36,948 nt of DNA from a virus. Taxonomy: Duplodnaviria > Heunggongvirae > Uroviricota > Caudoviricetes. A model generated the notes under the pieces. The model worked only from the letters and a program-made list of their open reading frames with translations. It was not told the DNA's origin and made no database searches. This document shows, piece after piece, positions 2,495-27,972 of the stretch (position 1 is the first letter of the stretch; every line of letters starts with the position of its first letter). Position numbers and translations under genes: made by a program. The DNA is taken from IMG/VR virus record IMGVR_UViG_2778261353_000005. One strand, 5' to 3'.

Positions 2495-2755
2495 GTAATC
2501 CGCCTCCTTTGGATCAATACGAGTTGATATTTGTTACAAAACATTTTGATTTTATCAGATTTTTTTTTATTGATAAGTGTCAATTGATTAGCTGGTATAG
2601 AGTGAGACATATAGAAGGGCAGATCTGTATCAGTAGTGATGCAAAAATCCCACAGTTTCATGGAATTTTTGCATTTAGAGCCGTGAGATAGGGTGCCTTA
2701 TCGACCTTACCCTGGCAACCGATTGACGGGGGATTACTCCCCCGTCGCGGTTTCC

Positions 2756-2896
2756 TTACTGCTTACACTGTAAGAACGCCGCAAACTCCGCTCCCCAGAA
2801 ACTCATCCGTATTTCGCACAGCGAACCGTGCAACATCCAGATGATGAGGATTACCGTCACGCAGAACGTGATGGCTGTAAGCGATTTTTGCGACAT
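2756..2896 (-). CDS. Hok/Gef-family type I toxin-like small membrane peptide (46 aa)
   Basis: Hand-translated (below ORF-track size cut-off): MSQKSLTAITFCVTVILIIWMLHGSLCEIRMSFWGAEFAAFLQCKQ; AAGGAG 8 nt upstream; TM helix then SLCEIR...AAFLxCK as in Hok proteins; GC hairpin at about 2725..2746. Confidence 0.55.
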   Translation of the reverse strand: MSQKSLTAITFCVTVILIIWMLHGSLCEIRMSFWGAEFAAFLQCKQ

Positions 2897-3086
2897 AGCA
2901 CTTGCTCCTTTTCCGGAGAGGCGCTAACCTTTCACTTGCTTAGGGTAGACGGTTAGGGCCTCGGTTAAACAAAAGTGTTTTCCGGGGCCTTTCCACATCT
3001 GGCCTTCGGGTATTCCCTCCGACCATCAGCCGAAAGGCACCCGCGCGTAATCTATCGCTTTTTTGTTACTCCGGCAATTCTGCTTG

Positions 3087-3347
3087 TTAATTCTGAGGTA
3101 AAGGCAAACTCATCTGATTGTTTCCCCTGTGTGAAGCTGGTAGCTCATGCCACGGGATACCTTCTGAAGAGTGAACGCCGGAGGCGTGTTTCGATGTGAA
3201 TTTATGGAAAGCTTCCAGTGTTGAGAAGCATACGCCGCATTCCAGATTGTTACACTGGTAATACTTTTGCCGCACGGTGTTTGAATCATTTTCCGGACGA
3301 CTTGTGCGGATACGGGCAGATGCGCCACAAAGCGGACAACGGAACAT
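3087..3347 (-). CDS. ogr: Ogr/Delta-family zinc-finger late transcription activator
   Basis: 86 aa; MFRCPLCG...YYQCNNLECG gives C-x2-C-x22-C-x4-C as in P2 Ogr. Confidence 0.85.
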   Translation of the reverse strand: MFRCPLCGASARIRTSRPENDSNTVRQKYYQCNNLECGVCFSTLEAFHKFTSKHASGVHSSEGIPWHELPASHRGNNQMSLPLPQN

Positions 3348-3538
3348 AGCGACCTCCCTTAACGTGGTGTTGCCGCTATTCTAGATTGTACGATCCCTAA
3401 TTCCAACTAACAGCTCGCTCTGTGCGAAGAGTGAAAATTGAACTTTCAATAGTTGTTGAACTTCCATACATCCAATGTGAAAATTCATACGTTCATAATA
3501 GTTAAAATTTAAAATATTGTATATCAGGTGAATAAAGC

Positions 3539-4561
3539 ATGGGAAGAGATATAACGCTGTACCCTAAAAAAGCAACTAGAAACGAACTTAAAAATTACCT
3601 TGAAAATTTAGGTTTTAAAAGGTGTAAACATTTGTGGGAATGGCCCCAAGGAACGTTGAATTACTCTTGGTTTGATGATACGGACTTCAAATCTACAGAT
3701 GGAGTTTCGGCTGATATATATCCTGTTTCAAATGACGAATTACACATATCTGGTAATAAATGGGCATTGCATGTGCGTAATTTATATAGCGCTAGTTGGC
3801 ATGATGTAAAAATGCTTAATGATGTTCTAAAAGGCGCAAGGAGTCTTTTTGGTGGAACACTTATAGGTGATTATGGGAAAAATAGGTACGCTCCTCTATG
3901 GAAGGATTCTAGTAGTCCGATCAGTCGTGGCATTTCTTCAATATTTAATCATGTCCATCATGAGATTTCCGCTGTTAAACATGCCTTACCTGAACCTTCT
4001 ATTAAATTAAACCTACCGGAAGATGGCGGTTTATCCGAATACTTTGATTACATGCAATGTATGGATCCCAGTAGAGTTATATATAATGGATTAGTACCTT
4101 TTGCGGTTGCTATGTTTGAATACTTTTTCTCTAGAGCTTTTCAAATACTTATAAAGTACGATCCTTTCGCAATAGCAAAAAGAACATCGTATAAGCAAAA
4201 AGTTGATTTTGATATTCTGCTTGAGATAGAGAAAGGAAATATTTCAATAGAAAGTGTTATTGCAAGAAATTACACTTTTCAAAACTTAACCCACCTAAAC
4301 AAAGCATATAAAGAGTGGCTGGATATAGATGTGAGAGCGATTCTTTATAAGAAAAAAAGAATTGGAAAATCAGTTGATTTTCTTGAGAATCGAATTTCTG
4401 AAATCATACAATATAGACATGGGATAGTTCATCACTTTGAGTTGGATAGGACCTTAAATCGGGATGGATATATTCATATATTAGATGCGATAGAAAAAAG
4501 CATAATTGAATTTATCCATTACATAGAAGGCAAATACAAATTTAAATTAAATGCGTATTAA
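3539..4561 (+). CDS. AT-rich accessory (moron) gene, function unknown; possible HEPN-like C-terminal Rx4H motif
   Basis: 340-aa ORF of clearly lower GC than flanks, opposite strand to D and ogr; C-terminal ...ENRISEIIQYRHGIVHH... Confidence 0.7.
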   Translation: MGRDITLYPKKATRNELKNYLENLGFKRCKHLWEWPQGTLNYSWFDDTDFKSTDGVSADIYPVSNDELHISGNKWALHVRNLYSASWHDVKMLNDVLKGARSLFGGTLIGDYGKNRYAPLWKDSSSPISRGISSIFNHVHHEISAVKHALPEPSIKLNLPEDGGLSEYFDYMQCMDPSRVIYNGLVPFAVAMFEYFFSRAFQILIKYDPFAIAKRTSYKQKVDFDILLEIEKGNISIESVIARNYTFQNLTHLNKAYKEWLDIDVRAILYKKKRIGKSVDFLENRISEIIQYRHGIVHHFELDRTLNRDGYIHILDAIEKSIIEFIHYIEGKYKFKLNAY

Positions 4562-4589
4562 GCAATCAACCTTACATAGGGATGACAAA

Positions 4590-4627
4590 GTCCGCTTCTG
4601 ACACGGAGCGGACCGTCGTTTATGTTT
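4590..4627 (+). terminator. Putative intrinsic terminator after the AT-rich gene
   Basis: gtccgc...gcggac stem followed by T-rich cgtcgtttatgttt. Confidence 0.4.
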
Positions 4628-4681
4628 AATTCTATACTGTAAACTTGCCAGTTTAAGTTTGAGCTAATATGTCTAAGTTGC

Positions 4682-5791
4682 TCACTCTGTTTCTGCTATC
4701 CATTCCGGGATTTTTGCCTCAAGCTCAAGCTGTGTGGTAAAGCCGCTGTTATCAATGGTGTGCTCGGCTTTCGCAATAATCCAGTCCTGATTATCAATCT
4801 CGCTTTTAAATCCTGTTACCGTGCCATGCATTTCGGGGTAGAGTTCTGCACGTCCACGCACCAGCGTGATGGAAAATAATGCGGCTCCGCGTTGTAGCTG
4901 CTGCCACTTTGCCGCCGCTGCGCGTCTTGCTGCCTGCTCGTTCTGATAAGTCTTGCGTAACACAAACACATTGCCTTCCGCGCCTTCCATATAATCACCT
5001 TCACGGCTGCTGCTTTTCTCCTTTTTGGGTTTTGGCGGTTTGCGGCGTTTCACGCTGACTTTTTTCTTTTTCCCGTAATTAAGATCAAGCCAGTAAGCGC
5101 GTACCCCCGTATACGCCTCGCGGTCAGCAATGCGGAACTGATGGCGATCGCCGCTGCTGCGTGTGATGGCGAACGATGGCAACGGCTGGCCCTGTGCGTT
5201 CACGCCACCGCCGGGCATGATGAATAACAGATTACCGCTTTTTACCGTGGTGATTGCGCCCAGCATTTCCGCCATGCGCGTAAGGAAGGACATGTCGCTT
5301 TCTTCAGTCTGGTCGGCGTGGTCGATTTCGATATCCATCAGCATTTCGCTGATTTGCGGTTTCAGGCTGTACCGATGAGCGATGGCGGATACCACACGTT
5401 CAACGGTCACATCATGCCAGGACGCCTCACGTTTAACATTAAATTCATCCCGAAAATCTGCGCTTCTGGCTGAAACAGTCAGCCTGTCCGGCGGTCCTTC
5501 GTGAGCGATTTCATCAACAATGTAAGTGCCTTTTTCTGTCAGCGGTTCCCCTTTCCAGCCAATGAGAACCGTCAGGCGCGCGCCCCGTGGCGGTAGCTGC
5601 AACTGACCATCCGCATCATCCAGCGTGATGGTGAGCTGGTCCGCTTCAAATCCCCGGTTGTCGGTCAGTGACAGGCTCATCAGGCGCTCTGCCACGCCTG
5701 ACAGCGTTTTACCCTCCGCGAGAATATCAAAATCCGGCATTTTCACGGGGTCTGTGCCCTGACTGAGCAATTGCATGGTGGTATCGGTCAT
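4682..5791 (-). CDS. D: Late control / tail protein D
   Basis: Start placed at MTDTTMQLL; the ORF-track N-terminal 44 aa are R/S/P/T-rich and look non-coding; family assignment by recollection of P2 gpD. Confidence 0.8.
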   Translation of the reverse strand: MTDTTMQLLSQGTDPVKMPDFDILAEGKTLSGVAERLMSLSLTDNRGFEADQLTITLDDADGQLQLPPRGARLTVLIGWKGEPLTEKGTYIVDEIAHEGPPDRLTVSARSADFRDEFNVKREASWHDVTVERVVSAIAHRYSLKPQISEMLMDIEIDHADQTEESDMSFLTRMAEMLGAITTVKSGNLLFIMPGGGVNAQGQPLPSFAITRSSGDRHQFRIADREAYTGVRAYWLDLNYGKKKKVSVKRRKPPKPKKEKSSSREGDYMEGAEGNVFVLRKTYQNEQAARRAAAAKWQQLQRGAALFSITLVRGRAELYPEMHGTVTGFKSEIDNQDWIIAKAEHTIDNSGFTTQLELEAKIPEWIAETE

Positions 5792-5948
5792 CTGTTCCCT
5801 CCCTGTGCGGCATGGTCGCATGTGCGTGCGGAGGGGGTTACTGCTTTTTGTTGTCGCCGTGGCGGGAGAACGGCGCAGGGGTGAGATTACGCGCGTGGTG
5901 GGTGATGATTGTTGCCGAATCATTTAACGGATACAAGGGGCTGAAGCT

Positions 5949-7133
5949 ATGAGTGAAACTCGTTTTCATGGTGCCCGTGTTACGGAAAATACCGACCTGG
6001 TAACAGCGATTAACGATGTTGATTCCAGCGTTATCGGTATCGTGGCAACGGCGGATGATGCGGACGCGAAGCTGTTCCCGCTGAACAAGCCCACACTGCT
6101 GACCCGCGTCAATGACGTGCTGGGAAAATGCGGGACAACGGGGACGCTTTATCGTGCGCTTAAGGCCATCGCAGACCAGGTGAGCACAAAGGTGATCGTC
6201 GTTCGCGTGGCTGAACACAAAGAAGAAGACGGAAAGACGCAGGATCAACTGGTTATCGGTGGTTCTGAGGATGACGGCAGCTATACGGGGATGTATGCGC
6301 TGCTTGTTGCAGAGCAGGATGAAAGCATCGGATACCGTCCGCGTATTCTGGCCGCGCCGGAGCTGGACACGGAGGCTGTAACAAAATCCCTGTGCGTGAT
6401 TGCAGGTAAACTGCGCGCGTTTGTGTATGCCTCATGTCACGGCTGTAACACGATGGCTGAGGCGATTACCTACCGCCAGAAATTCAACGAACGTGAGGTG
6501 ATGCTCTTATGGCCGGACTTCATCGCCTACAACCCGAAAAGTGGCAAAAACGAAACGTTCCCCGCGTCTGCCTATGCGTGCGGCCTTCGTGCGTACATTG
6601 ACCATGAGCAGGGATGGCACAAATCACTGTCCAACGTTCCGGTTAAAAATGTGCTGGGGATGTCGAGGCATGTGTTCTGGTCGTTGCAGGCCGAAGACAG
6701 CGATGCCAACAGCCTCAACAACAAAGAAATCACGACCATTATTCGTCGCAACGGGTTCCGCTTCTGGGGCAACCGCACACCGGAAACGAACGCCTACATC
6801 TTTGAGGTGTATACCCGAACCGCACAGGTGCTGGCTGATTCAATTGCGGAAGCGCAGTTTGAAACCATCGACAGTCCACTGACGCCTGCGAACGTGAAGG
6901 ATGTTATCAGTGCCATCAGGGCAAAACTGGATTCACTGGTGACTGCCGGGAAACTGATTGGCGCGTCGTGCTGGTATGACGTGGTGGATAACAGCACCAC
7001 GGATTTACGTCAGGGGCGTGTGCGTATTCGCTACAAATATACGCCAGTTCCTCCGCTGGAAGATATGGAGCTTTACCAGACGTTTACTGATGAATACTTT
7101 GATCCCGCATTTGCGGTGCTGGGAGGTGTCTGA
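5949..7133 (+). CDS. FI: Contractile tail sheath protein
   Basis: 394 aa; conserved blocks FPLNKP, LRAF, WPDF, DHEQGWHK, IRRNGFRFWGNRT, YTPVPPLE as in P2 FI. Confidence 0.9.
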   Translation: MSETRFHGARVTENTDLVTAINDVDSSVIGIVATADDADAKLFPLNKPTLLTRVNDVLGKCGTTGTLYRALKAIADQVSTKVIVVRVAEHKEEDGKTQDQLVIGGSEDDGSYTGMYALLVAEQDESIGYRPRILAAPELDTEAVTKSLCVIAGKLRAFVYASCHGCNTMAEAITYRQKFNEREVMLLWPDFIAYNPKSGKNETFPASAYACGLRAYIDHEQGWHKSLSNVPVKNVLGMSRHVFWSLQAEDSDANSLNNKEITTIIRRNGFRFWGNRTPETNAYIFEVYTRTAQVLADSIAEAQFETIDSPLTPANVKDVISAIRAKLDSLVTAGKLIGASCWYDVVDNSTTDLRQGRVRIRYKYTPVPPLEDMELYQTFTDEYFDPAFAVLGGV

Positions 7134-7645
7134 TGGCTGTACCAAAACATCTTCGCTTTTTTACGCTGTTTGTGAATGGTGAAAACGAAGTGGGTAAGGT
7201 GACGTCCGTCACTCCACCTAAACTGACGCGCAAAACTGAAAGCTATCGTGGCGGTGGCATGATGGGGGCGGTGAGTATCGACCTCGGTCTTGACGACTCC
7301 GCGCTTGATGCGAGTTTTGTCATGGGGGGCGCAGTTCGTGAGCTGTTCCTTAAATATGGCGGCACGATTGACGGCACGTTGCTGCGTTTTGCGGGTGAAT
7401 ACTACACTGATGCAGAAAGCGATCTGTATGAAATCGAGATGCGCGGGCGTGTGACGGAAATTGATATGGGGGAAGCCAAACAGGGCGAAGCCACATCACA
7501 CACTTATGCTGTCAAAAACACCTACTACAAGCTGAGCGTTAACGATCGTCCGCTGTGGGAAATCGACCTGCTGAACCACATCTACCGGAAGGACGGCAAG
7601 GACATCGTGCCTGATCGCATCCGTTCCGCGCTTGGGCTTGGCTGA
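7133..7645 (+). CDS. FII: Tail tube protein
   Basis: 170 aa; ATG overlaps FI stop; position and size as P2 FII. Confidence 0.85.
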   Translation: MAVPKHLRFFTLFVNGENEVGKVTSVTPPKLTRKTESYRGGGMMGAVSIDLGLDDSALDASFVMGGAVRELFLKYGGTIDGTLLRFAGEYYTDAESDLYEIEMRGRVTEIDMGEAKQGEATSHTYAVKNTYYKLSVNDRPLWEIDLLNHIYRKDGKDIVPDRIRSALGLG

Positions 7646-7701
7646 TAAGTAATATGCAGGCGGCGCAGTGCGTCGCCTCTGACTGAAAAAGGAGACAACT
7701 G

Positions 7702-8076
7702 ATGCAAAACATCAATACTGAAACCCAGAATAACGCCGTGGCGGATGATGTGACGGCAGGTGAGGATATGGCTGTCGAACGTGGCGTAAAACTGGCCCGA
7801 CCAATTGAGCGCGGTGGCGAAAAAATCACGTATGTGGAAATTACCGGGGCTATTGAGCAGGCTGGATCTCTGCGTGGTCTGTCGCTTTCTGATGTGCTGA
7901 ATCTGAAAGCGGATACCATGTTCACGCTGTTGCCTCGCGTGACCTCGCCACGACTGGATGAAGTGATGATTAAAAAAATGTCGTCACGCGATTTTATTCA
8001 GTTGTGCGCTGTGGCTGTAAATTTTATGAGCGAGCCAGACTCTGGCGCGAAGAGCGTGCAGGAGACGGCAGCGTAA
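7702..8076 (+). CDS. E: Tail assembly chaperone E
   Basis: AGGAG 7 nt upstream of ATG; SLRGLSLSDVL...LLPRVTSP resembles P2 gpE. Confidence 0.8.
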   Translation: MQNINTETQNNAVADDVTAGEDMAVERGVKLARPIERGGEKITYVEITGAIEQAGSLRGLSLSDVLNLKADTMFTLLPRVTSPRLDEVMIKKMSSRDFIQLCAVAVNFMSEPDSGAKSVQETAA

Positions 8077-8240
8077 TCACCCTGGTGTGCTTTGAGCACA
8101 TCGAAGATCTGGTGGCGGATATTGCCGCCATTTTTAACTGGTCGCCCGCCGAAATCTTCATGATGACGCCCGGCGAAGTGGTTAGCTGGCGTGAGCGGGC
8201 GGCACTTCGCAGCGGGAATGCAGACAATGAAGACTCTTGA
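7702..8240 (+). CDS. E': E+E' fusion by programmed -1 ribosomal frameshift
   Basis: -1 frame ORF (8004..8240) overlaps the E 3' end; slippery heptamer A_AAT_TTT at 8019..8025 in the E zero frame. Confidence 0.7.
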
Positions 8241-11034
8241 TATCCGGGTCGCTTTCAGCGCCGTTGACAGACTGACCCGGCCTGCCGAAAACGCCCGCCG
8301 CCTGATGGGGCAGTTTGGTGACTCCATCCAGCGAACGCAGGGGGCGATCAAAAATCTCGAGCGTCAGGCGCGTTCATTTGAGCGCGCCCGTGACGCTGTC
8401 AGTAAAGCGGATGCGGGCATCGTGAAAGCACGACGCCAGCTTAACGCCCTTAATCAGTTACAACGCACGGGTACAGTGCTCAGCGAAAAACAACAAAAGC
8501 TGATGCAGCAGTTAAGCACCCGGCTTGAACGCCTGAATGAATCGCGCACACGGGAAATTCAGAAAATGCGGGAGCTTGGCGGAGAGCTGAAACGCCACGG
8601 CATTTCCCTGACAGGCAGCGATAACACCATCCAGCAGGCCATCAGACGCACCGAACAGTACAACAACCAGCTTGAACGCGAACGGCAGACGCTTGCGCGT
8701 GTAACGCGGGCGCGTGAGCGGTATTCGCGAGCGCAGGAAACTGCTGGAAAACTGAAAACAGGTGGTGCGCTGGCAATTGGTGCGGCAGCGGCTGGCGGCT
8801 ATGCTGCCGGGCGTTTTTTGCAGCCTGCGATCGGGTTCGGGAAAGAGATGTCCCGCGTTCAGGCACTGACGCGAATCGACCAGAACAGCCCACAGTTTAA
8901 GGCGCTGCGTGAGCAGGCGTTAAAACTTGGCTCTGAAACGCAGTTCACCGCAGGTGATGCCGCCAGTGGACAGGCATTTCTTGCAATGGCTGGCTTCACA
9001 CCACAGGCCATTCAGGCTGCGCTCCCTGGCGTACTGAGCATGGCAACGGCTGGCGGTATGGACCTCGGTGAGACGGCGGATATTGGCTCAAATATTCTGA
9101 CGCAGTTCGGTCTTTCTGCTGACCAGATGGACCGGGTCGGCGACACACTCACCGCAGCGTTTACCCGTACCAACACTGACCTTCGCGCACTGGGTGAAAC
9201 CATGAAATATGCAGGTCCGGTGGCGGGTAAGCTGGGAATATCGCTGGAGCAGGCCGCAGCGATGGCAGGCGTGCTGGCGAATATGGGTATCAGGGGGAGT
9301 GATGCCGGGACGGCAATGCGTGCCAGCCTGGCTCGTCTGGCATCACCGCCAAAGGCGGCAGCAGAGGCGCTGAAAGAGCTGGGCGTGTCTGTCTCGGATG
9401 CCGGGGGCAAAATGCGCCCGATGGAGGATGTGCTGGCCGACCTTTATAAAGCCACCCGCAAATACGGGGAAGTTGACCGGGTATCGTTCTTTAAGGACAT
9501 TGCCGGAGAAGAGGCTTTCACATCGTTTATGGCGCTCGTTGATGCAGCGGGTGACGGTTCCTTACCCAAACTGAGAAAAGAACTTGAAGGCGCGCGCGGT
9601 GAGGCTGAACGCACAGCAAAGGTTATGGCCAACAACCTTGACGGCGATCTGAAATCACTCGGCAGTGCATGGGAAGGGTTGCGCATCCGCATTGCAGATC
9701 TGATTGACGGTCCGCTGCGTTCTGTCACGCAGTGGCTCACGCGAGTGGTCTCAAAGGTGACGGCGCTGGCGCAGGCCCATCCCGCACTGACGCGCCAGCT
9801 ACTGATAGCAGGCGGTGCGTTGCTGGCAATGACTGCAACGGTTGGCTCGTTGTCGCTGGCTATTGGTGTGCTTGCTGGCCCGCTGGCAAAACTGCGTCTT
9901 GGTTTTTCTCTCCTGACCGGATCAATGAATGCTGTCAGGGTCCTGCCAGCACTATGGGGAATGGTGACGGGTTCCGTTTCTTTACTGGGAGGCGCTATCG
10001 GGGCGCTGTTCAGTCCGGTCGGGTTGATTGCTGCAGCGTTTGTCGCTGCGGCGGTTCTCATCTGGAAATACTGGGAACCCATCAAGGCGTTTTATGCCGG
10101 GGTGTTCAGTGGGATTATGGAGCGACTGGCCCCGTTGCGCGAAACCTTTGAACGGTTTGGCCCTGTTTTTGACGCAATCGGAAGCGGGATCAGCCAGGTG
10201 TTTAACTGGTTTAAATCGCTGCTGTCACCAATGGAGTCCAGCAAGGAAACGCTGGATAAATGTACCAGTGCTGGCGAGATATTCGGTAACGTTCTTGGCG
10301 GTGCGTTACAGCTTGTTCTGACACCTGCAAAAATGCTACTGGATACGCTGGCGTGGATACTTGAAAAACTTGGCGTCCTTCCGGATGAAGCGGAAAAGGC
10401 GCGCAAGAAAATCGAAGACGCACAGCGTGCGGCCATTCTTCAGGACAAGGTTGCCTTGCTTCAGGGGGACCTTGCGAAAATCAATCCGCCGAAGCCTGTG
10501 GAAAATGGCAATGGCACCGGAGGTGATAAACCCAAAGACAACAAACCGCTCACAGACAGCAATACCGGTACGCTACGCAGACTCAGCAAAATTGCTGATA
10601 ACACAGGTAAGCTGGTTGATGAGACGAAAAAACGCATTGGCCCCGGCGATATTGTCTTTAAGAACCTGCCCCGCGCACTTGCTGTTCGTGGGGAGTGGCA
10701 GGAGCGGAAGATTGCGCAGGTCAGTAAGCCTGCTTCCGCAATCAACATCACACCCGTGGTCCCGACTCCTCTGCCTCCGGCGCTGGTCCCTGTTGTTGCG
10801 GCCAGCTCCCGCCCGGTGGCGGAGGCCATACGATCGCCAGTGGCATCAGTTCCTGCAGCTTCCCGTAATCGGGAGCCTGCTGTCTCCGGATTTGGCGGTG
10901 AAATTCATGTTCATCTGCATAACGTTGTTACGCAGAATCCCCGCGAACTGGCGAAACTGGTCGGTGAAATGGTCAGGGCAGAGATGGAACGGCGCGCCCG
11001 TGCCGGACGTGGCAGTTTTTACGATAAAGATTGA
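8218..11034 (+). CDS. T: Tail tape measure protein
   Basis: About 938 aa from first in-frame ATG (MQTMKTL); coiled-coil N-terminal half, Gly/Ala-rich hydrophobic middle; sits between E' and U. Confidence 0.9.
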   Translation: MQTMKTLDIRVAFSAVDRLTRPAENARRLMGQFGDSIQRTQGAIKNLERQARSFERARDAVSKADAGIVKARRQLNALNQLQRTGTVLSEKQQKLMQQLSTRLERLNESRTREIQKMRELGGELKRHGISLTGSDNTIQQAIRRTEQYNNQLERERQTLARVTRARERYSRAQETAGKLKTGGALAIGAAAAGGYAAGRFLQPAIGFGKEMSRVQALTRIDQNSPQFKALREQALKLGSETQFTAGDAASGQAFLAMAGFTPQAIQAALPGVLSMATAGGMDLGETADIGSNILTQFGLSADQMDRVGDTLTAAFTRTNTDLRALGETMKYAGPVAGKLGISLEQAAAMAGVLANMGIRGSDAGTAMRASLARLASPPKAAAEALKELGVSVSDAGGKMRPMEDVLADLYKATRKYGEVDRVSFFKDIAGEEAFTSFMALVDAAGDGSLPKLRKELEGARGEAERTAKVMANNLDGDLKSLGSAWEGLRIRIADLIDGPLRSVTQWLTRVVSKVTALAQAHPALTRQLLIAGGALLAMTATVGSLSLAIGVLAGPLAKLRLGFSLLTGSMNAVRVLPALWGMVTGSVSLLGGAIGALFSPVGLIAAAFVAAAVLIWKYWEPIKAFYAGVFSGIMERLAPLRETFERFGPVFDAIGSGISQVFNWFKSLLSPMESSKETLDKCTSAGEIFGNVLGGALQLVLTPAKMLLDTLAWILEKLGVLPDEAEKARKKIEDAQRAAILQDKVALLQGDLAKINPPKPVENGNGTGGDKPKDNKPLTDSNTGTLRRLSKIADNTGKLVDETKKRIGPGDIVFKNLPRALAVRGEWQERKIAQVSKPASAINITPVVPTPLPPALVPVVAASSRPVAEAIRSPVASVPAASRNREPAVSGFGGEIHVHLHNVVTQNPRELAKLVGEMVRAEMERRARAGRGSFYDKD

Positions 11035-11040
11035 GGAGTC

Positions 11041-11535
11041 ATGGTCATGATGATGATCTACGGCATGTTTGTTTTTGAGCTGCGCACACTGCCGCATCAG
11101 CAGTTACAGCAAAACAAAAGCTGGCGGCATGTGAAAAATGAACGCGTTAACCGTTCAGCAAGCTGGCAGTATATCGGTGCAGGTGATGATCGCATCGTGC
11201 TTTCCGGCGTGCTTTATCCTGAAATTACAGGTGGTGAAGTGTCGCTTTCGTTACTGACCACGCAGGCATATACAGGACGCCCCTGGCCTCTGATTGATGG
11301 TGTCGGGCAGATTTACGGCATGTATGTGCTGACTGAAACGAATACGACCCGTTCCGAGTTTGATCGCTACGGTAAGGCGAAAAAGATAGAATTTTCACTG
11401 ACTCTTGAACGCTGTGATGAGGATTTGCGGGAGCGCCTGCAATCCTCATCATTCAGCGATATGCTGTCCGGCTTCAAAGATAAGGTGACATCATCTCTTA
11501 ACAGCGCGGCCAGTTCAGTTAAAGGGCTGTTCTGA
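11041..11535 (+). CDS. U: Tail protein U
   Basis: 164 aa; ...QQLQQNKSWRHVKNERVNRSASWQYIGAGDD... matches P2 gpU. Confidence 0.85.
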   Translation: MVMMMIYGMFVFELRTLPHQQLQQNKSWRHVKNERVNRSASWQYIGAGDDRIVLSGVLYPEITGGEVSLSLLTTQAYTGRPWPLIDGVGQIYGMYVLTETNTTRSEFDRYGKAKKIEFSLTLERCDEDLRERLQSSSFSDMLSGFKDKVTSSLNSAASSVKGLF

Positions 11536-11546: not shown

Positions 11547-11572
11547 AACCGCTAATGGTCAGATTAGCGGTT
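11547..11572. terminator. Bidirectional intrinsic terminator between convergent U and invertase genes
   Basis: aaccgctaat-ggtcag-attagcggtt hairpin with T-rich flank on both strands. Confidence 0.55.
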
Positions 11573-12158
11573 ATTTTGTTTCCTGACTCTTCTCAATTGT
11601 TCCGCTTGATTCTCCTGCGAGGTGGTAACGATAAATCGTCGATATACCAATGCCGTAAATTATTGCCAGTTGTTTTCTGTCGTGCCCGTTTTTGATCAGC
11701 CTTGCTATTTGCTCATGCTGTTCTTTTGTCAGCTTCGGGCGACGTCCGCCTGTGCGCCCCCGTGCGCGCGCTGCCGCCAGTCCGGCCAGTGTGCGTTCAA
11801 CAATTAATTCACGTTCCATTTCTGCTAAAGCTCCCATGACGTGAAAAAAGAAACGCCCCATGGGTGTTGATGTGTCAATGCTGTCCGTCAGGCTACGGAA
11901 ATTAACACCTTTTTCCCGCAATTCCTCAATAAGCGTGATCAGGTGTTTCATACTCCTGCCCAGCCTGTCCAGCTTCCAGACAACCAGCGTATCTCCTTCT
12001 GATAGCGTTCTGAGCAGTTTTTTCAATCCCGGTCTGGCTGATTTCGTTCCGCTGATTTTATCTTCAAAAATCAGTTCACATCCTGCGCACTCCAGCGCGT
12101 TACGCTGCAATTCCGTGTTCTGGTCATTTGTTGATACGCGAACATAACCAATAAGCAT
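11571..12158 (-). CDS. Serine DNA invertase (Gin/Pin/Cin/Hin family)
   Basis: Near-identity to Gin-type invertases over the catalytic N-terminus (MLIGYVRVSTNDQ..., VWKLDRLGRSMKHL, MGRFFFHVMGALAEMERELI) and C-terminal HTH. Confidence 0.9.
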   Translation of the reverse strand: MLIGYVRVSTNDQNTELQRNALECAGCELIFEDKISGTKSARPGLKKLLRTLSEGDTLVVWKLDRLGRSMKHLITLIEELREKGVNFRSLTDSIDTSTPMGRFFFHVMGALAEMERELIVERTLAGLAAARARGRTGGRRPKLTKEQHEQIARLIKNGHDRKQLAIIYGIGISTIYRYHLAGESSGTIEKSQETK

Positions 12159-12214
12159 GAGCATCCCCCTGAATAAAAACCGGAGATGATGCCAGTTACC
12201 CGTTATCTCTGCAT

Positions 12215-12240
12215 TTTCACAAATGTTGGTTTAGGAGAAG
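12215..12240. repeat. Invertase crossover site (gix/cix-like), left boundary of invertible fibre segment
   Basis: ttggtttaggagaag at 12226..12240 is the reverse complement of cttctcctaaaccaa at 14108..14122; AAACC..GGTTT-type core. Confidence 0.7.
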
Positions 12241-12731
12241 GCTCAGCATTGCCTGTTGGCGTACCTGTTCCGTGGCCCTCAGCCACTCCGCCAACAGGCT
12301 GGCTGAAATGCAACGGAGCAGCTTTTTCTGCTGAAGAATACCCGGAACTGGCAAAGGCTTACCCGACAAATAAATTGCCTGATTTACGCGGTGAATTTAT
12401 TCGCGGCTGGGATGACGGGCGTGGGGTTGATTCGGGCCGAACTATATTGAACTCTCAGGGAGATGCAATCAGAAATATCACGGGGACAATTGGTGCAAGG
12501 CATGAAATATCAGCACTGTATTTTTTTGGCAATGGCTCTGGTGCATTTTTTGGGAATGATGAGGGAATGTATGATTCCGTTGTGATAAAAGCTGAATCTA
12601 CAGGTAAGTCATCAGTTTCTATGACAGATCGTCATATTTACGCTAATTTGGATGTCTCAAGAGTTGTTCCTACAGCGACAGAAAACAGACCTCGTAATAT
12701 TGCATTCAACTACATCGTGAGGGCGGCATAA
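12232..12731 (+). CDS. Alternative (currently silent) tail-fibre C-terminal segment, expressed only after inversion
   Basis: No credible independent start; frame runs through the crossover site encoding GLGE, the same tetrapeptide at the crossover in H; fibre-tip-like sequence. Confidence 0.65.
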
Positions 12732-13348
12732 TGCGCGAGGATACCATGAATACAGTCACACTGAATGAGGCCCTACTGGCGACTGTCGCGGGTGAAGTCG
12801 TCATATACAACTACGACAGCAAGACGCGGGAATATCTTTCCACATCAACTGAATATCTTGCGGTTGGCGTCGGCATCCCGGCATGTTCTTGTTTAGATGC
12901 ACCAGTTACACATAAAGCTGGTTATGCAATCTGCCGTTCTGCAGATTTTAACTCATGGGAATATGTGCCAGACCATCGCGGTGAAATCATCTATAGCACC
13001 GAAACAGGAGAATCGAAAGAAATCACAGCTCTGGGTGATTACCCTGAAAATACAACCACTATCGCCCCGTTAACGCCATATGATAAATGGGATGGTGAGA
13101 AATGGGTGACGAATACTGAGGCACAGCATAGCGCCGCAGTAGAAGCGGCAGAAGCACAGCGCCAGTCACTGATTGATGCAGCAATGGCTTCCATCAGTCT
13201 GATTCAACTGAAATTACAGGCCGGACGGAAGCTGACGCAGGCAGAAAACACCCGTCTAAACGCTGTGCTGGATTACATTGATGCGGTGACGGCAACAGAT
13301 ACCAGAACCGCGCCGGATGTCATCTGGCCTGAACTGCCGGAGGCGTAG
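12731..13348 (+). CDS. Tail fibre assembly protein (alternative copy inside invertible segment)
   Basis: 205 aa; ATG overlaps preceding stop (TAATG); C-terminal DYIDAVTATDT...PDVIWPELP parallels the convergent tfa copy. Confidence 0.75.
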   Translation: MREDTMNTVTLNEALLATVAGEVVIYNYDSKTREYLSTSTEYLAVGVGIPACSCLDAPVTHKAGYAICRSADFNSWEYVPDHRGEIIYSTETGESKEITALGDYPENTTTIAPLTPYDKWDGEKWVTNTEAQHSAAVEAAEAQRQSLIDAAMASISLIQLKLQAGRKLTQAENTRLNAVLDYIDAVTATDTRTAPDVIWPELPEA

Positions 13349-13760
13349 GCCATTCAATATCTGGCGCACCGGAAGTATCGACCAGTTCTAGTGCGTCCAG
13401 ATAATCCAGCCACAAATTATATTGCGCCAGTTCCTCACCTTTCAGGCGACCAATCGCCGCTTTACCAGGCCATTGCTTACTGTTTATGTATTCGTTGACC
13501 TGATTAATCAATTGCTGCTTTTCCAATTCGGCTGCGGCAATTTGTTCCTCATGAGTTGGCGGTGGAATATCAATCCATGCAGGCATTCCGTCGATGACAC
13601 CTCTGTATTTTCCTTCTGGTGCTTCCTTCATAAATTCGGCAGCAACAGTGTCGTCAATTTCGATTCCATCACCGGGCCATTCGCCGGATTCCTGATAAGC
13701 GATTTTAAGCTCCACAGGGAAAAACGCATTTTTATCAGCACTGAAAATATATTTCTGCAT
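13320..13760 (-). CDS. G: Tail fibre assembly protein (active orientation)
   Basis: 146 aa directly downstream of H; C-terminal LDYLDALELVDTSGAPDIEWP motif. Confidence 0.8.
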   Translation of the reverse strand: MQKYIFSADKNAFFPVELKIAYQESGEWPGDGIEIDDTVAAEFMKEAPEGKYRGVIDGMPAWIDIPPPTHEEQIAAAELEKQQLINQVNEYINSKQWPGKAAIGRLKGEELAQYNLWLDYLDALELVDTSGAPDIEWPTPPAVQAR

Positions 13761-13762: not shown

Positions 13763-15253
13763 CTACCGTCCTATCGAAACATAACTGAATCTGTATTGCT
13801 GTGAGATATCACTGGTTGCCACACGCCACGCTGAATTACTGATATGTTCAAAATTTACAGACAAAACCTGCGGGGCAGGATTCGACGGGTCTGACTGAAC
13901 GGCATCAGACATAACACTGACTGAAACCATCGGCTGATTAGGGAATGGTATAGGGAAGTGTCCACTGATAAAGCGGGTCGTGTTTCCTGAAAAAGTGCCA
14001 AACTGAACAATATATCCACCTGGTAGCCTGAACCATCCCGAACCAGAAGCGAATGCTCCCATATCCGGTATCTGATTATCTCCTGTGCCCACATCCCTTT
14101 TCGCCGCTTCTCCTAAACCAAGGTAATCAAGAACGCCCTGAGTGCTGGTTTTACCAAGAATGGCACGTCCAACACTTGTCAACGCGGTTAACGCGGCACG
14201 ATCTGCCCCTGTAAAATATGGGAGTTTATCTGCTGATGTAGCAAGCTCCGCCAGCGCCGTCAGGGTGGCATCCTTCGGTTGCTTACCCGCAAGCGCGTTA
14301 GTCATGGTGGTCGCAAAATTCGGGTCATTGCCCAGCGCCGCAGCCAGTTCGTTCAGCGTGTTCAGTGCATCAGGTGACGAATCTACAAGTGCGGCAATCG
14401 CGGCCATAACGAAAGCCGTGCTTGCGATCTGGGTACTATTAGTCCCCTGTGGCGCTGTTGGTGTTGTTGGCGTTCCGGTCAGTGCCGGGCTGTTTAATGG
14501 TGCTTTCTTGTTCGTTTCATCCATTACCGCCTTAACAGCTTTTGGTGTCGCTGCCAATGTTTCAGACGTGCTGTTCGTGGCGCTACTGAGCTGAACAATC
14601 CCTTTTTGTGTAGTGGTGGCGTTCTGGGCAGTATATTTCTCGTTAGCCAGGTCATATGCAGCCTTAACCGCTTTCGGTGTTGCGGCCAGTGTTTCTGATT
14701 CACTGTTAATTGCACTGCTTAACTGAGTAAAACCTTTTACGGTCAGCGAGGCGTCCGGGTGACGTCGTGACTGTTCGTGCTCTGATATTTTATCATCCAC
14801 ATATTTGCGGGTTGCCAGAACCACAGACGGGTCGATTTTCAGCGTGATGGCTTCGGTGTTCGTGACAACCAGAATCATGCGGATAGTCTGGGTGCGTCCA
14901 CTGCCTTCCTGCAACTGCGGTTTGTACGTTTCCGGGCAGTTTGCCACCGCAATGAGTACACCTTCATCATCATAAAGACCAATCTCACGGATCCAGAATC
15001 CTCCCTCGTTTTCAGGGATGATTTGCTCCGCAATAATCTGGCTCTGATTGTTAGGGTCAACACTCAGAAGATTCAGCGGTGCAATGCGTTTCTGGTTAAT
15101 CAGTTTTGTTTGTGCAGGGTCTGGTGTTGGTAACACACCATTTGCATCACCAACGGCCATTTGCGTCAGATTCAGCTTACTGCCGAGCATCGTCGCGTTA
15201 GCCAGTCGTGCCGCGCCCTGATTAGTCAGAATGGCGTAGTATTTCACTGTCAT
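13763..15253 (-). CDS. H: Tail fibre protein H (constant N-terminus plus currently joined variable C-terminus)
   Basis: N-terminal blocks MAVGD, GFW-RE-GLYDD-G-LIAVAN, YVDDKI-EHEQSRRHPDASLT-KGFTQLSSA, ETLAATPKAVKAAYDLA match P2 gpH. Confidence 0.85.
   Translation of the reverse strand: MTVKYYAILTNQGAARLANATMLGSKLNLTQMAVGDANGVLPTPDPAQTKLINQKRIAPLNLLSVDPNNQSQIIAEQIIPENEGGFWIREIGLYDDEGVLIAVANCPETYKPQLQEGSGRTQTIRMILVVTNTEAITLKIDPSVVLATRKYVDDKISEHEQSRRHPDASLTVKGFTQLSSAINSESETLAATPKAVKAAYDLANEKYTAQNATTTQKGIVQLSSATNSTSETLAATPKAVKAVMDETNKKAPLNSPALTGTPTTPTAPQGTNSTQIASTAFVMAAIAALVDSSPDALNTLNELAAALGNDPNFATTMTNALAGKQPKDATLTALAELATSADKLPYFTGADRAALTALTSVGRAILGKTSTQGVLDYLGLGEAAKRDVGTGDNQIPDMGAFASGSGWFRLPGGYIVQFGTFSGNTTRFISGHFPIPFPNQPMVSVSVMSDAVQSDPSNPAPQVLSVNFEHISNSAWRVATSDISQQYRFSYVSIGR
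14108..14133. repeat. Invertase crossover site, right boundary, inside H
   Basis: Inverted copy of the 12226..12240 site; encodes GLGE in the H frame. Confidence 0.7.
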
Positions 15254-15858
15254 GCGTTTACTCTCAGATTATCAATTAAATGAATGGCTGGGGCAGGGAA
15301 ATAATCCCCTTCGACAATAATGGACTCCGGGGTGTAGGGATAAACCGTCAGGGCATCGCCGTGATAGCATCCCGTACCAACGAAAATCTTTCCGTTCACA
15401 CTCAGGCTGATCGCCAGCCCCGTCAGATGGCGACTTACTGGTTTTGCATCCGCAATAAGGCGCTCAAGTTCCTGATACATTTCATCGGTGATGCCCTGAT
15501 CAAGTACTCCGACAACAATGCGAAATGTTCCCGGCTCCTCGTTGAGTTGCCACCACTCCTTTACTTCAATCAGGTAGCCGAGAGGCTCCACGGCTCTTCG
15601 CAGTGCGCTGATGGTCCCTTTGTGTCGGTGTATCAGCCATGCATCACGAATAACCTGTCGCTTTGTCTCTTCCGGCCAGTTGCGATCCCAGCGGTCAACG
15701 GAAAACGCCCAGGCGAGATAAGGCAGCAGGTGCACCGGGCAGGTGTCCGGCGACCACAGCGTGTTGAGGTCTACCGGGATGTCTGTAATGCGCGTTCCGA
15801 CAGCTTCGGCATAACGCATGAAATTGCTGGCTGATGGCGGTAACAGTGAATTACTCAT
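15250..15858 (-). CDS. I: Baseplate protein I
   Basis: Start at MSNSLLPP; WSPDTCP...LLPYLAWAFSVDRWD...IRDA...HKGTI...EPLGYLI matches P2 gpI. Confidence 0.8.
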   Translation of the reverse strand: MSNSLLPPSASNFMRYAEAVGTRITDIPVDLNTLWSPDTCPVHLLPYLAWAFSVDRWDRNWPEETKRQVIRDAWLIHRHKGTISALRRAVEPLGYLIEVKEWWQLNEEPGTFRIVVGVLDQGITDEMYQELERLIADAKPVSRHLTGLAISLSVNGKIFVGTGCYHGDALTVYPYTPESIIVEGDYFPAPAIHLIDNLRVNA

Positions 15859-16747
15859 TACGCCCACCTTCGCTGATGGTGAATGACTCACAGCGCGCCG
15901 CCTGTATGTCACTGATGGCCATATTCTGTGTGGGTTCGATTATCTCCACGCGTTGCACGCCGTGCACATGAAGTGCGGCAGCAATGGCGGACAGCGCCAC
16001 GTCCTGACCGATAAGCCCCTGTTCAGCCAGCCACTTCCTGAACGACGATTCAGCCGCAGCCAGAATAGGTTCGGATTCCGGGCCGGGGTAAAAGTACAGT
16101 TTTGCATTCAGCCGCCATGTCACGATTCTGGCGCTCTGTACCGTCAGGCGGTCGGCCACCGGGCGGGTATCCTCTGCATTCAGAACGGCGCGAACGGTAT
16201 TAAGCAACGCCTCCGTTGCTGTGCCGTCGCCTTCAGTGGACAGAATGGAAACCGTCACACAGGCCGGAGACGGGCTGATAGCTCGCGCATCGCGCACCAG
16301 ACCGCTGGCGCTGCGTGCAAAATACTCGTATGCACCTGACGGGCCAGCAACACTCAGGCCGTCGTACGCCCGCTGCGCCCGCAATCTCAGCGAGGTGTCG
16401 CTCTCCATCACCGCGTCGGTGGTATCCGTTGCCGGAGTGATAACCAGGCGCTTTGTGTTCATATTGCCCGCGAGGTTGTCCAGGTTTGTCCCTGAACCGT
16501 GGCTTAACATGCAGGCGCGTGCGCCCTCGTTAACCCGCTGGCGTAACAGCATTTCACGAAAAGACATGGTTTGAGCGATAACGTTCAGGGGTTCCGATTC
16601 CAGCTCCAGCGCGGCGGAGACGGCTTCACGCTGTTCGGCAGGATAGGACGCAATCATCATGGCCTTTGTGTCAGCCAGAATTGCCTCAAAGTCAGGCTCC
16701 GCTATGATGGCGGGTTCCGGTAACTGGGAAAGGTCAACGGCAGGCAT
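15851..16747 (-). CDS. J: Baseplate protein J
   Basis: 298 aa between W and I, typical gpJ size and position. Confidence 0.8.
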   Translation of the reverse strand: MPAVDLSQLPEPAIIAEPDFEAILADTKAMMIASYPAEQREAVSAALELESEPLNVIAQTMSFREMLLRQRVNEGARACMLSHGSGTNLDNLAGNMNTKRLVITPATDTTDAVMESDTSLRLRAQRAYDGLSVAGPSGAYEYFARSASGLVRDARAISPSPACVTVSILSTEGDGTATEALLNTVRAVLNAEDTRPVADRLTVQSARIVTWRLNAKLYFYPGPESEPILAAAESSFRKWLAEQGLIGQDVALSAIAAALHVHGVQRVEIIEPTQNMAISDIQAARCESFTISEGGRNE

Positions 16748-16750
16748 GAT

Positions 16751-17101
16751 TTACTCTCTCAGCGTAATGGTTAATTCAACATTCTGCATGGTCTGCATGA
16801 CAGTGCCCGACAGCGTCACCCCGGCGCGGCCTCCTGCTTTCCAGACAACATCGATGGCATCCAGGGCAATGCGGGGTTCCCATCGTGTCAGTGCAATCAC
16901 GGCAGCACTCATGCATTGCAGACGCGTGGTGTTATTCATGGGTTCGTCAATCAAATCAGGCACAAGGCTGCCATATTCCCGTCGCATAACCCGGCTGGCC
17001 AGCGGGGTGGTCAGGATGTCCCTGACTGACTGTTTCAGGTGCTCCATATCGTTCAGGTTTCCCGTTCCGTCCGGGTTCATTCCTGTGTAGCGGGTTGTCA
17101 C
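16751..17101 (-). CDS. W: Baseplate wedge protein W (gp25-like)
   Basis: 116 aa, position and size as P2 gpW. Confidence 0.8.
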   Translation of the reverse strand: MTTRYTGMNPDGTGNLNDMEHLKQSVRDILTTPLASRVMRREYGSLVPDLIDEPMNNTTRLQCMSAAVIALTRWEPRIALDAIDVVWKAGGRAGVTLSGTVMQTMQNVELTITLRE

Positions 17102-17679
17102 TGCGGGCCTCCTGTCGAATCGCTGCCACCTTTAACGCCACCGTGCTTATGCGTATGCACTGTGATGCCGTTTGAGGTGAAATCGCCGCCGCTGTGCGTG
17201 ATATTGCCGCTCATCTTTCCCCCTTTTGTGACGTCAAGCGTCGCTGTTCTCAGAAGGTTTGTGCATTCCACGACGGGCGTATCCAGTGTCACGCTGACGG
17301 ATGCCTGCAGGGTGGCTGTTTTCATGCCGCTGGCGCTCAGTGCGCCAGCGTCTGCGTCGTAGCGGAACACCGCGCCATCCGGCGCGCTGACCACGATTTC
17401 TTTCAGGCTTTTGCCGGGGGCCGGACTGGCATCACTCCACAGGCTGCCAATTATCATGGCGGTTTCCGGGTTGCCGCCAATGCAGGCAATTACCACCTGT
17501 TCGCCTGGTGATGGCGGCAGCCACACATTGAAGGCTCCCGCGCGCGTGGTGTTCCAGCGCAACCAGCCTGTTTCCAGTTCGCCGCTGCGAACGCGCACGC
17601 GCCAGGACTTCTCATCAACTTCAGAGATGATCCCGGTGCGGATGATATTGCTCAGCAGTCGCATGAGTTCTGCGCTCAC
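17098..17679 (-). CDS. V: Baseplate spike/hub protein V
   Basis: 193 aa; Gly/Thr-rich C-terminus; position as P2 gpV. Confidence 0.8.
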   Translation of the reverse strand: MSAELMRLLSNIIRTGIISEVDEKSWRVRVRSGELETGWLRWNTTRAGAFNVWLPPSPGEQVVIACIGGNPETAMIIGSLWSDASPAPGKSLKEIVVSAPDGAVFRYDADAGALSASGMKTATLQASVSVTLDTPVVECTNLLRTATLDVTKGGKMSGNITHSGGDFTSNGITVHTHKHGGVKGGSDSTGGPQ

Positions 17680-18320
17680 CGTACAGCCTCCGCAATCCGG
17701 CCCAGCACCGTGTTATAAATCAGGCGCTCATCTGCCTGGCTGATACCCAGCAGCTCACGTACCGGGTAATCGGTGAAAATGCCCGGCGCAACCTGATCGC
17801 GCTCACCGAACTGATGAACGCGGGCAATACGTGCGGCCACGCCGCTGTAACCCACCGTCACACCGGAAGCATCTGCACGGGCTTTCAGGTAGCGGGCGGT
17901 GCGCAGTTTTACGAACATGGGGACGCGCTTTGTGCTGTCCTGGTTGATGCGCCGGGTGCGTATTTCCAGAAAACGGTCGATGTCAGCCCGGTAAAACGTG
18001 CGGATATTGTTTTTATCCTCATCCCACCCGGTAATGGTTCGCCCGTATTTCCCCGTGTCGTGATGCCAGTTTTTCAGCGTGCGTGCTTCGTTATTCCAGA
18101 TAAAGCGAATGCGTTCCTGTATCCGGGTTACGCGGCGTCTGCGTGGTGTCCACGCGGTCCCGTCCGGCGCTTTCTGTGACCGGATACGCGCCTGCTGGGC
18201 GCGGCGTAAATCCTGTGCCAGCTTTCCGGCGATGTTATTGATGGCCTGCTGATTCAGGCTGTCGCGGATGGCCTCAAAGGTTTCATCCACGCGGGTGAAT
18301 GCCTTATCCATCGCTTTCAC
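17676..18320 (-). CDS. S: Virion morphogenesis / tail completion protein (gpS-like)
   Basis: Positional; 214 aa is longer than P2 gpS so assignment is tentative. Confidence 0.6.
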   Translation of the reverse strand: MKAMDKAFTRVDETFEAIRDSLNQQAINNIAGKLAQDLRRAQQARIRSQKAPDGTAWTPRRRRVTRIQERIRFIWNNEARTLKNWHHDTGKYGRTITGWDEDKNNIRTFYRADIDRFLEIRTRRINQDSTKRVPMFVKLRTARYLKARADASGVTVGYSGVAARIARVHQFGERDQVAPGIFTDYPVRELLGISQADERLIYNTVLGRIAEAVR

Positions 18321-23583: not shown

Positions 23584-23737
23584 AGTTTTTGCCCCTCTGA
23601 CTGGTTCTTCAGTCATGATGGCAAAGCGTAACAGGCTGATACAAAGGGCTTTTGTTGTAAGAAAACGGCCAGAACAGGGGGTTAAGGAGAACAGTTTCGC
23701 GCGCGGGTAATCTTCCTGTAATTACTCAGGGGGAGCA

Positions 23738-26535: not shown

Positions 26536-26549
26536 CGCGCTTCGCTTGT

Positions 26550-26598
26550 CTGCTGCTTCGCCGGGGCATAAAAAATTTATGCCCCGGCGAAGCAGCTC
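26550..26598. repeat. ~49-bp near-perfect palindrome 15 bp downstream of portal stop; candidate terminator and/or cos-proximal protein-binding site
   Basis: ctgctgcttcgccggggcataaaa | ttttatgccccggcgaagcagcag arms paired by hand with one central mismatch. Confidence 0.6.
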
Positions 26599-26990
26599 CT
26601 GTATCAATCAGATAATTTCACGACGCTTTTCTGCTTATTGCCATCATCGGCGGTCAGACTCTTACGCAATCCCACCGCGTTGACTGCATGTTCTTCGCCG
26701 CCTCAGTGCGATTTTGACGGCCTTACCTTTCACCCCATCAAACCAGAATCCCTCACGTATTTTTCACGCTCAGCGTGAGAAATACGGCCATTCTGTCGTG
26801 TCGCTGCGACATCGTTAAGGGAACGCTATTTACCCCCTGAAACGCGGGCTGTTCCCCCGTCACCTGCGCGCAGAAAAAACGCGTTTTTTTGTGCACGTAC
26901 GGATCCTTGACGGATCCAGCCACCACGCGGGCCGGAAGTACAAAAAGTCGTTCAAAAAAATTGTGCAAACTTGTGCACTATCGTGCAAAC

Positions 26991-27012
26991 AAAAAAAGCG
27001 CCTTATCGGCGC
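26991..27012 (-). terminator. Intrinsic terminator ending the A-parM-parR/89-aa gene transcription unit
   Basis: On minus strand gcgccGATAAggcgc followed by TTTTTTT, 10 nt after the 89-aa gene stop. Confidence 0.6.
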
Positions 27013-27022
27013 TTCAAAAGTA

Positions 27023-27292: not shown

Positions 27293-27313
27293 TTTATTTA
27301 CCTCATAGGAAAA

Positions 27314-27454: not shown

Positions 27455-27500
27455 GCATGGACAATGCCGCGCAATTATCTTGTCGCTCACAATGCGAACG

Positions 27501-27968: not shown

Positions 27969-27972
27969 TGGT

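Follow-up and report, generated by a model that had tools for sequence, protein, structure and literature searches.

The DNA analysed here (36,948 nucleotides, IMG/VR record IMGVR_UViG_2778261353_000005; the whole stretch is called the window) contains a Gemsvirus-type, P2-like prophage (Peduoviridae), near-identical to Escherichia phage 500465-2 and integrated next to the host gene flk. Between the phage genes ogr and D it carries a single additional gene, here called the cargo gene, whose protein of 340 amino acids (aa) joins an N-terminal alpha/beta domain to a C-terminal HEPN domain (Table 1). This protein is identical to gp34 of phage 500465-2 and to RefSeq WP_000532200, each labelled 'hypothetical protein', and no paper was found that mentions it or tests its family. 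The open reading frame (ORF) is oriented opposite to both ogr and D, which lie side by side in canonical P2 (NC_001895; D at 22791-23954, ogr at 24036-24254), separated by a gap of 81 bp that contains the ogr promoter, and which are ~42 bp apart in most related E. coli prophages, for example in UTI89. Its G+C content (GC) of 0.335 (0.26 at third codon positions, GC3), like that of the whole insert (0.339), is well below that of the rest of the prophage (0.534) and of the flanking genes ogr (0.483) and D (0.543).

Alignment of empty with filled junctions delimits the insert to about 3384-4675 (1,292 bp) with one ORF, the start of which is fixed because the N-terminal residues MGRD are invariant in 36 homologues. 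The insert was searched for further ORFs of note, tandem repeats, repeat arrays and Rfam RNAs, and none was found. With neither tandem repeats nor an Rfam match in the insert, a type III (RNA) antitoxin could be rejected; a chance ORF in AT-rich DNA was rejected on account of conservation among homologues. The start codons of ogr and the cargo gene are divergent, with 191 bp between them. About 45 bp at the left end are common to all filled variants of the junction, and the -35 element of a promoter-like site directed toward ogr (ATTCCAAC on the + strand) is kept at this end in all five cargo variants; the empty junction retains only the -10 element. A recombination site in this shared segment was considered and set aside, the -35 and -10 elements of the ogr promoter-like site being the simpler reading. 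At the other end, the hairpin between the cargo gene and D has a folding energy of -22.3 kcal/mol on the + strand (z = -4.3, 0 of 200 shuffles as good) and of -16.4 kcal/mol on the - strand (z = -3.1); its T tail is imperfect. Since it folds on either strand it could insulate the convergent genes from each other, as a possible two-way terminator. The original prediction had described the locus as an AT-rich single-gene moron on the strand opposite to two genes that adjoin in P2, with divergent promoter space toward ogr and a terminator-like hairpin, and this description is upheld throughout: the 1.29-kb insert holds one ORF and is carried by 65 of about 1,200 genomes with this backbone.

Table 1 Features of the cargo locus, and other genes found at the ogr-D junction. 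Positions are those of the window unless a locus record (L) is named.
Feature	Position	Strand	Remarks
Cargo gene, two-domain protein of 340 aa	3539-4561 incl. stop	+	ATG start
N-terminal alpha/beta domain, aa 1-125	3539-3913	+	matches no family
Connecting helix aa 127-149 and variable linker aa ~151-175	3914-4063	+	AlphaFold2 (AF2) secondary structure
C-terminal HEPN domain, aa ~176-335	4064-4543	+	
Predicted catalytic Rx4H motif R293-H294-G-I-V-H298	4415-4432	+	
Shine-Dalgarno AGGTG	3526-3530	+	8 nt before ATG; read from sequence
Promoter-like site toward ogr, TTGGAA-N17-TAGAAT	3406..3378	-	promoter scan
Weak candidate cargo promoter, TTGAAC (3456-3461)-N17-GAAAAT (3479-3484), TG at 3476-3477	3456-3484	+	relaxed scan, 8/12 matches
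GC-rich hairpin between convergent cargo gene and D	4590-4613	both	9-bp stem, 6 GC pairs
Left insert boundary TCTAGATTG	3380-3388		imperfect copy of right boundary; UTI89 empty junction has CGCTATTCTAAGTTGCTCAC
Right insert boundary TCTAAGTTG	4672-4680		abuts D stop codon 4682-4684
Left flank, ogr (late-gene activator)	3087-3347	-	Pfam Ogr_Delta 5.1e-14; RefSeq annotation
Right flank, gpD-like tail/baseplate hub gene	4682-5923	-	Pfam Phage_GPD 1.2e-16; annotations; true start may be downstream of 5923
bSEFIR-like gene at ogr-D junction	L007 2005-2919		305-aa TIR/SEFIR protein; PADLOC bSEFIR 1.4e-44
DUF3800 gene at ogr-D junction	L010 1994-3163		stand-alone, 390 aa; genomes include O104:H4
Alpha/beta hydrolase gene at ogr-D junction	L008 2115-2873		253 aa
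222-aa protein gene at ogr-D junction	L009 1911-2576		no Pfam/PADLOC match; genomes include enteropathogenic E. coli (EPEC) E2348/69

The C-terminal half of the protein matches the Pfam family PF18735 (HEPN_RiboL-PSP), aa 181-329 aligning with profile positions 29-189 of 191 (22.5 bits, E = 1.2e-4). The same family is matched by 45 of 70 relatives at E<=0.01, the best with 4.3e-10, and a precomputed match to it is present in most close homologues. In an alignment of these 70 sequences, which reaches down to ~20% identity, no residues are invariant other than E194, F247, R293 and H298, while conservation is at least 90% at H294, N183 and Q248; the invariant R/H pair lies within the segment ENRISEIIQYRHGIVHH (residues 283-299). 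Computationally, the protein has two marks of the HEPN superfamily, an all-alpha helical-bundle fold and a conserved Rx4-6H motif; the metal-independent endoribonuclease activity typical of this superfamily is predicted. By analogy with other HEPN RNases, it probably acts as a dimer. Sequence searches of the PDB with the protein and with the 70-sequence profile gave no match; NCBIfam and PADLOC 2.0 returned no family for the protein, and PHROGs nothing significant.

The N-terminal domain is conserved to the same degree as the HEPN domain, with mean identities of 77% and 71%, respectively, in the close set of homologues and of 30% and 29% in the distant set. The linker that joins them is the least conserved part (mean identity 31% in alignment A1 and 10% in A2). 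Conservation of S52, G55, S86, D89, N94, F104-G105-G106, D111 and G113 throughout the family suggests a pocket in the N-terminal domain. A profile search with this domain only, the sensitivity of which is limited by the requirement for shared 5-residue words, found it in no other architecture, the hits being fragments and broken copies of the cargo gene. The domain gave no L-PSP match even at E<=5, nor was a Rossmann-like CARF/SAVED sensor of the type that precedes HEPN in Csm6 and Csx1 found in this position.

The ogr-D junction is a variable hotspot of these mobile elements, and some related prophages have a known defence gene there. A query composed of ogr, the insert and the end of D retrieved 1,205 records from 1,202 of 5,426 complete E. 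coli genomes, with the insert in only 65 of them (among these enterotoxigenic (ETEC) and ST131 strains); about 95% of near-identical prophage backbones are without the cargo gene. Prophages with the same backbone hold another single gene at the junction, encoding a bSEFIR-like protein, a DUF3800 protein, an alpha/beta hydrolase or a protein without a match (Table 1). Counted per genome, which does not imply the junction position of each copy, the HEPN gene is found in 65 complete E. coli genomes, the 222-aa gene in 58, the DUF3800 gene in 36, the hydrolase gene in 6 and the bSEFIR-like gene in 5. A SEFIR protein has been validated experimentally as a single-gene defence (Millman et al. 2022, bioRxiv 10.1101/2022.05.11.491447), and type VII retrons use DUF3800 as their effector domain (PMC7736814). 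The bSEFIR-like cassette occupies exactly the same junction and strand as the cargo gene, likewise consists of a single gene, and is followed in L007 by a hairpin with the same stem (GTCCGCT/AGCGGAC), although the proteins are unrelated and differ in effector chemistry, TIR/SEFIR in one and HEPN in the other. The 222-aa, DUF3800 and hydrolase genes are candidates in their own right. The hotspot sites of P2-like phages named in the literature found are gpA-portal, Z/fun, int-att and int-primase; one hotspot paper gives a broader interval, 'tail protein to CI regulator', into which ogr-D would fall, and neither this junction nor the cargo gene is named in the P2-like hotspot literature found.

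Beyond E. coli, the family is widely but sparsely distributed, and it has spread horizontally. A set of 5.8 billion proteins contained 295 homologue matches, the best 120 of which are 64-99% identical over their full length, and an exhaustive search of representatives at 50% identity gave 284 clusters, mostly of ~330-350 aa, with coverage of both domains down to ~25% identity. Among 185,579 species representatives (one genome per species), 33 loci were found, mostly at 56-88% identity, by a scan that used the close alignment A1 and under-samples distant members. They span Gamma-, Beta- and Deltaproteobacteria, Bacteroidota, Acidobacteriota, Spirochaetota and Cyanobacteria, and extend to Verrucomicrobiota, Gemmatimonadota, Latescibacterota and Patescibacteria. 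The gene has a lower GC than its flanks in 28 of 28 loci (mean 39% versus 50%, Wilcoxon p = 7e-9) and thus looks foreign everywhere, its GC tracking that of the host (r = 0.81). When the 368 ORFs within 6 kb in 32 loci were clustered, no neighbour family recurred in more than 3 loci: the cargo gene has no partner and is autonomous.

Two copies are broken, as would be expected for a costly gene: that of Pseudomonas sp. 15A4 (L059 4001-5022) has a frameshift near residue 200, and that of Geovibrio thiophilus (L060 4001-5077), which adjoins smpB and an integrase gene, has an in-frame stop inside a small duplication. A 4.2-kb contig (L023) from a metagenome-assembled genome labelled Planococcaceae (Firmicutes) encodes a protein 100% identical to the cargo protein (tblastn); most likely it is E. 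coli DNA that was mis-binned, and no sign of a transfer.

Homologues reside in defence islands as well as in prophages. They occur, for instance, in a lambdoid prophage next to a SIR2 gene, in an AlpA/DUF927 island and in islets adjacent to smpB. Among the 149 nearest neighbours (within 4 kb), PADLOC recognized HamB (E = 0), ThsA (4e-202), the M, S and R subunits of type I restriction-modification (R-M) systems, a DrmD-like helicase, a cyclase of the cyclic-oligonucleotide-based antiphage signalling system (CBASS), a defence-type reverse transcriptase and several candidate PDC families, and Pfam recognized integrases and transposases. Where the neighbours were mapped, HamB lies directly upstream of the homologue in L044 (Hachiman) and ThsA upstream in L036 (Thoeris), L038 has the DrmD-like helicase and L043 has a match to PDC-M36A. 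In a locus from Spirochaetia (L046, 6698-16267) the HEPN gene is located inside a type I R-M operon, with the order hsdM, 572-aa ORF, HEPN gene, probable hsdS, hsdR.

A layout similar to that of this last operon is known from the prr locus, in which PrrC, an anticodon nuclease, is a latent RNase that provides a second line of defence within a type I R-M system. PrrC and RloC differ from the cargo protein in carrying an ABC-ATPase N-terminal domain where it has a small alpha/beta module, and the E. coli cargo copy has no R-M linkage. The lactococcal abortive-infection (Abi) proteins AbiD/AbiD1/AbiF, AbiJ and AbiU2 resemble the cargo family in being AT-rich, single-gene, mobile-element-borne Rx4-6H HEPN systems, but they have a different N-terminal domain, and the hosts of the cargo family are mainly Gram-negative and belong to many phyla; the cargo protein gave no match to Pfam Abi_2 (the AbiD/AbiF family) at E<=1 and none to any PADLOC model, Abi models included, at E<=1. 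RnlA and LsoA (RNase LS, E. coli) need the adjacent antitoxins RnlB and LsoB, whereas none is present in the cargo insert or recurs in the 32 loci; they share no sequence similarity with the cargo protein and have two N-terminal domains to its one. More generally, the adjacent cognate antitoxin that marks the HEPN toxins of type II toxin-antitoxin systems (RnlA/LsoA, HEPN-MNT) was not found here. By analogy the cargo protein would work like AbiD/F/J, RnlA/LsoA and PrrC, yet it lacks the features that would place it with any of them.

The nearest catalogued group is the 'Ribo L-PSP-HEPN' clade of a 2013 survey of HEPN domains (Anantharaman et al., PMC3710099), which was described there as Rx4-6H-positive, Abi-like and distantly related to AbiD/AbiF, with predicted cleavage of mRNA; among the Abi proteins, AbiD/AbiF are those that the survey puts closest to the clade. 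The C-terminal domain of the cargo protein aligns with most of the corresponding PF18735 profile and contains the Rx4-6H motif, its membership being borderline by score. The protein is without the name-giving fusion to an endoRNase L-PSP domain and has the unassigned conserved alpha/beta domain instead, and the name-giving ParB operon of the clade was not recovered, as ParB does not figure in the 25 Pfam families most frequent in the 149 neighbours. No experimentally tested member of this clade was found in the literature. The original prediction had rightly read the C-terminal motif (R293-x4-H298) as a HEPN signature, had overlooked that the N-terminal half is an equally conserved domain, and had called the gene a candidate for an undescribed defence or Abi gene. 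Its candidacy stands on good circumstantial grounds, given the blanks from PADLOC 2.0, NCBIfam and PHROGs, the bSEFIR-like gene at the same junction and the defence neighbours, but the word 'undescribed' has to be qualified, since an in-silico catalogue already included the HEPN clade in 2013.

With a probability of roughly 0.55, the cargo gene encodes a lysogen-expressed, single-protein abortive-infection or defence RNase in a horizontally acquired cassette; the bSEFIR-like and DUF3800 occupants of the same junction and the defence neighbours of homologues count for this reading. In uninfected cells, the RNase would be latent, with the N-terminal domain either restraining the HEPN domain or binding a conserved cellular or phage-induced cue. 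Upon infection by a competing phage, the HEPN domain would cleave RNA (tRNA, mRNA or rRNA), probably in homodimeric form, so that a composite Rx4H active site with the invariant R293 and H298 is completed; translation would then stop and phage production would be blocked.

Several observations weigh against this interpretation. The PF18735 score (23.5 bits for the isolated domain) remains below the curated cut-off of 28.4 bits, and in the AF2 model the predicted local distance difference test (pLDDT) falls below 50 at residues 293-299 only, that is, in the catalytic segment, an uncertainty of the monomer model that a HEPN dimer could explain. PADLOC 2.0 does not recognize the protein, and the ORF is preceded by weak sigma-70 matches only, the best of which was not reported by a stricter scan. 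Several homologues lie among housekeeping genes in a plain chromosomal setting, without defence or mobile-element context. The association with defence neighbours is suggestive, being a count without a matched background, with defence neighbours mapped individually in 5 loci and several loci having none. The N-terminal domain is also unusually conserved for a sensor of phage proteins, which evolve fast, and its conservation does not account for the trigger.

Other roles for a conserved HEPN protein on a prophage are less consistent with the absence of a partner, the ~95% of backbones that do without the gene, and the residence of homologues with the conserved catalytic pair in defence islands outside phages. 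The protein might be a selfish toxin or addiction module: its own N-terminal domain, or an unlinked factor, would keep the HEPN toxin in check, and the gene would persist because losing or misregulating it hurts the cell, which would stabilize the prophage or island but give no phage defence. This is unlikely, because the insert holds no antitoxin candidate, none recurs in the 32 loci and most related prophages do well without the gene, although addiction and defence are not mutually exclusive. The position of the gene between a late tail gene and ogr, sharing the control region of ogr, would instead fit an RNase that benefits the phage in its own lytic cycle or in conflict with satellites (host mRNA shut-off, processing of phage transcripts or P4-like interference); indeed, P2-like phages are constantly in conflict with P4 satellites (PMC9122126), which exploit the late genes controlled by ogr/delta. 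Such a role seems quite unlikely for a gene that is absent from about 95% of near-identical backbones, that lies on the strand opposite to the late genes with a hairpin insulating it from D, and whose close homologues occupy chromosomal islets and defence islands outside phages in different phyla.

Still less probable is a counter-defence RNase that destroys RNA parts or signals of the host's immune systems, for example CRISPR RNAs, retron non-coding RNA or nucleotide second messengers. Carriage by a temperate phage would be in keeping with this, as anti-defence genes also cluster in variable phage loci, and the conserved N-terminal pocket could bind a conserved signalling molecule, but non-phage homologues beside Hachiman and Thoeris genes and within an R-M operon are placed as expected for defence genes and not for anti-defence genes, and the same junction carries the defence gene bSEFIR. 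Least probable is a non-catalytic or non-RNase HEPN-fold protein, such as a nucleotide- or protein-binding regulator that serves host physiology and has nothing to do with phages: some HEPN domains are inactive or ligand-binding (PMC3710099), and both domains here are highly conserved across phyla with some housekeeping surroundings, but the catalytic R and H are strictly invariant family-wide, the distribution is sporadic (33 loci in 185,579 species representatives, 65 of 5,426 E. coli genomes) and the gene looks foreign wherever it occurs.

The defence reading can be extended, tentatively, to a more specific proposal, which we consider somewhat doubtful: the cargo protein may represent a new family of autonomous 'sensor-HEPN' proteins whose N-terminal domain reads a universal cue (for example the condition of ribosomes or of the tRNA pool, or a small nucleotide) and not a variable phage protein, and ogr-D may be an unexploited defence hotspot, with the 222-aa, DUF3800 and hydrolase genes as further systems. 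A universal cue would explain how one gene could work, at 56-88% identity, from E. coli to Bacteroidota, Spirochaetota, Cyanobacteria and Patescibacteria.

The remainder of the prophage shows a number of other features. The gene order FI-FII-E-T-U-D-ogr is collinear in canonical P2, from which the window phage differs: the block of sheath, tube, E, tape-measure and U genes (5949-11535, + strand) is inverted, relative to P2, with respect to D (4682-5923, - strand) and the baseplate and fibre genes (13763-18320, - strand). Since this arrangement is common to all relatives examined, it is a fixed feature of the lineage and not a recent inversion. Tail-fibre-assembly ORFs on both strands adjoin a DNA invertase gene (11571-12164, - strand); this region (11571-13760) probably forms an invertible switch of host range, of the Cin/Gin type. 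At 26536-29008, between the portal gene and gpA, the classical defence hotspot of P2 holds a gene for a ParM-like actin-type ATPase (27973-28932, - strand) and a 148-aa ORF. Its content here appears to be plasmid-partition cargo and not a defence system; such cargo is reported from about a quarter of P2-like phages (Rousset et al.).

At the prophage end, just past ogr, lies a hok/sok-type addiction module (2750-3042, - strand) that is kept in all related prophages examined, with a Hok/Gef coding sequence and a match to the sok antitoxin RNA (Rfam RF01794; at 51.9 bits, E 4e-10, the gathering score of 59 is not reached). Between this module and flk follows a second AT-rich island (35.6% GC over 1264-2700), the genes of which (1264-2494, - strand) encode a TagO/VasI-like protein (Pfam VasI 2.6e-25, phrog_1848) and a zinc-ribbon membrane protein (phrog_6586), neither of which matches PADLOC. 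The pair is replaced by a TM2-domain gene in strain 4600, and prophages at serS, ihfA or tRNA sites are without such a pair; the island looks like another variable cargo site. The 'complete genome' record of Escherichia phage 500465-2 (NC_049343.1; L001, 25946-32936) contains host genes (flk, a gene for a major facilitator superfamily transporter, fabB and mnmC) and a transposase gene, and its portal and terminase genes are split into fragments, so that the boundaries and annotation of this record are unreliable.

In summary, the cargo gene represents a two-domain family built on a catalogued HEPN clade and residing in a cargo site that had not been singled out before. One more prophage-borne HEPN defence candidate would be unsurprising; what is unusual is that a putative sensor is conserved across phyla, that the gene is fully autonomous and that three more cargo genes occur at the new junction. 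The ogr-D junction of P2-like prophages is thereby flagged as a cargo site for mining. If lysogens are protected, a single-protein HEPN system that is invisible to PADLOC would be added to the defence repertoire of E. coli. The lack of a partner gene, the occurrence in many phyla and the conserved putative sensor would make it a useful model. Because the N-terminal domain is as conserved as the nuclease, which points to a conserved trigger or target, the family may also be informative on how latent HEPN RNases are switched.

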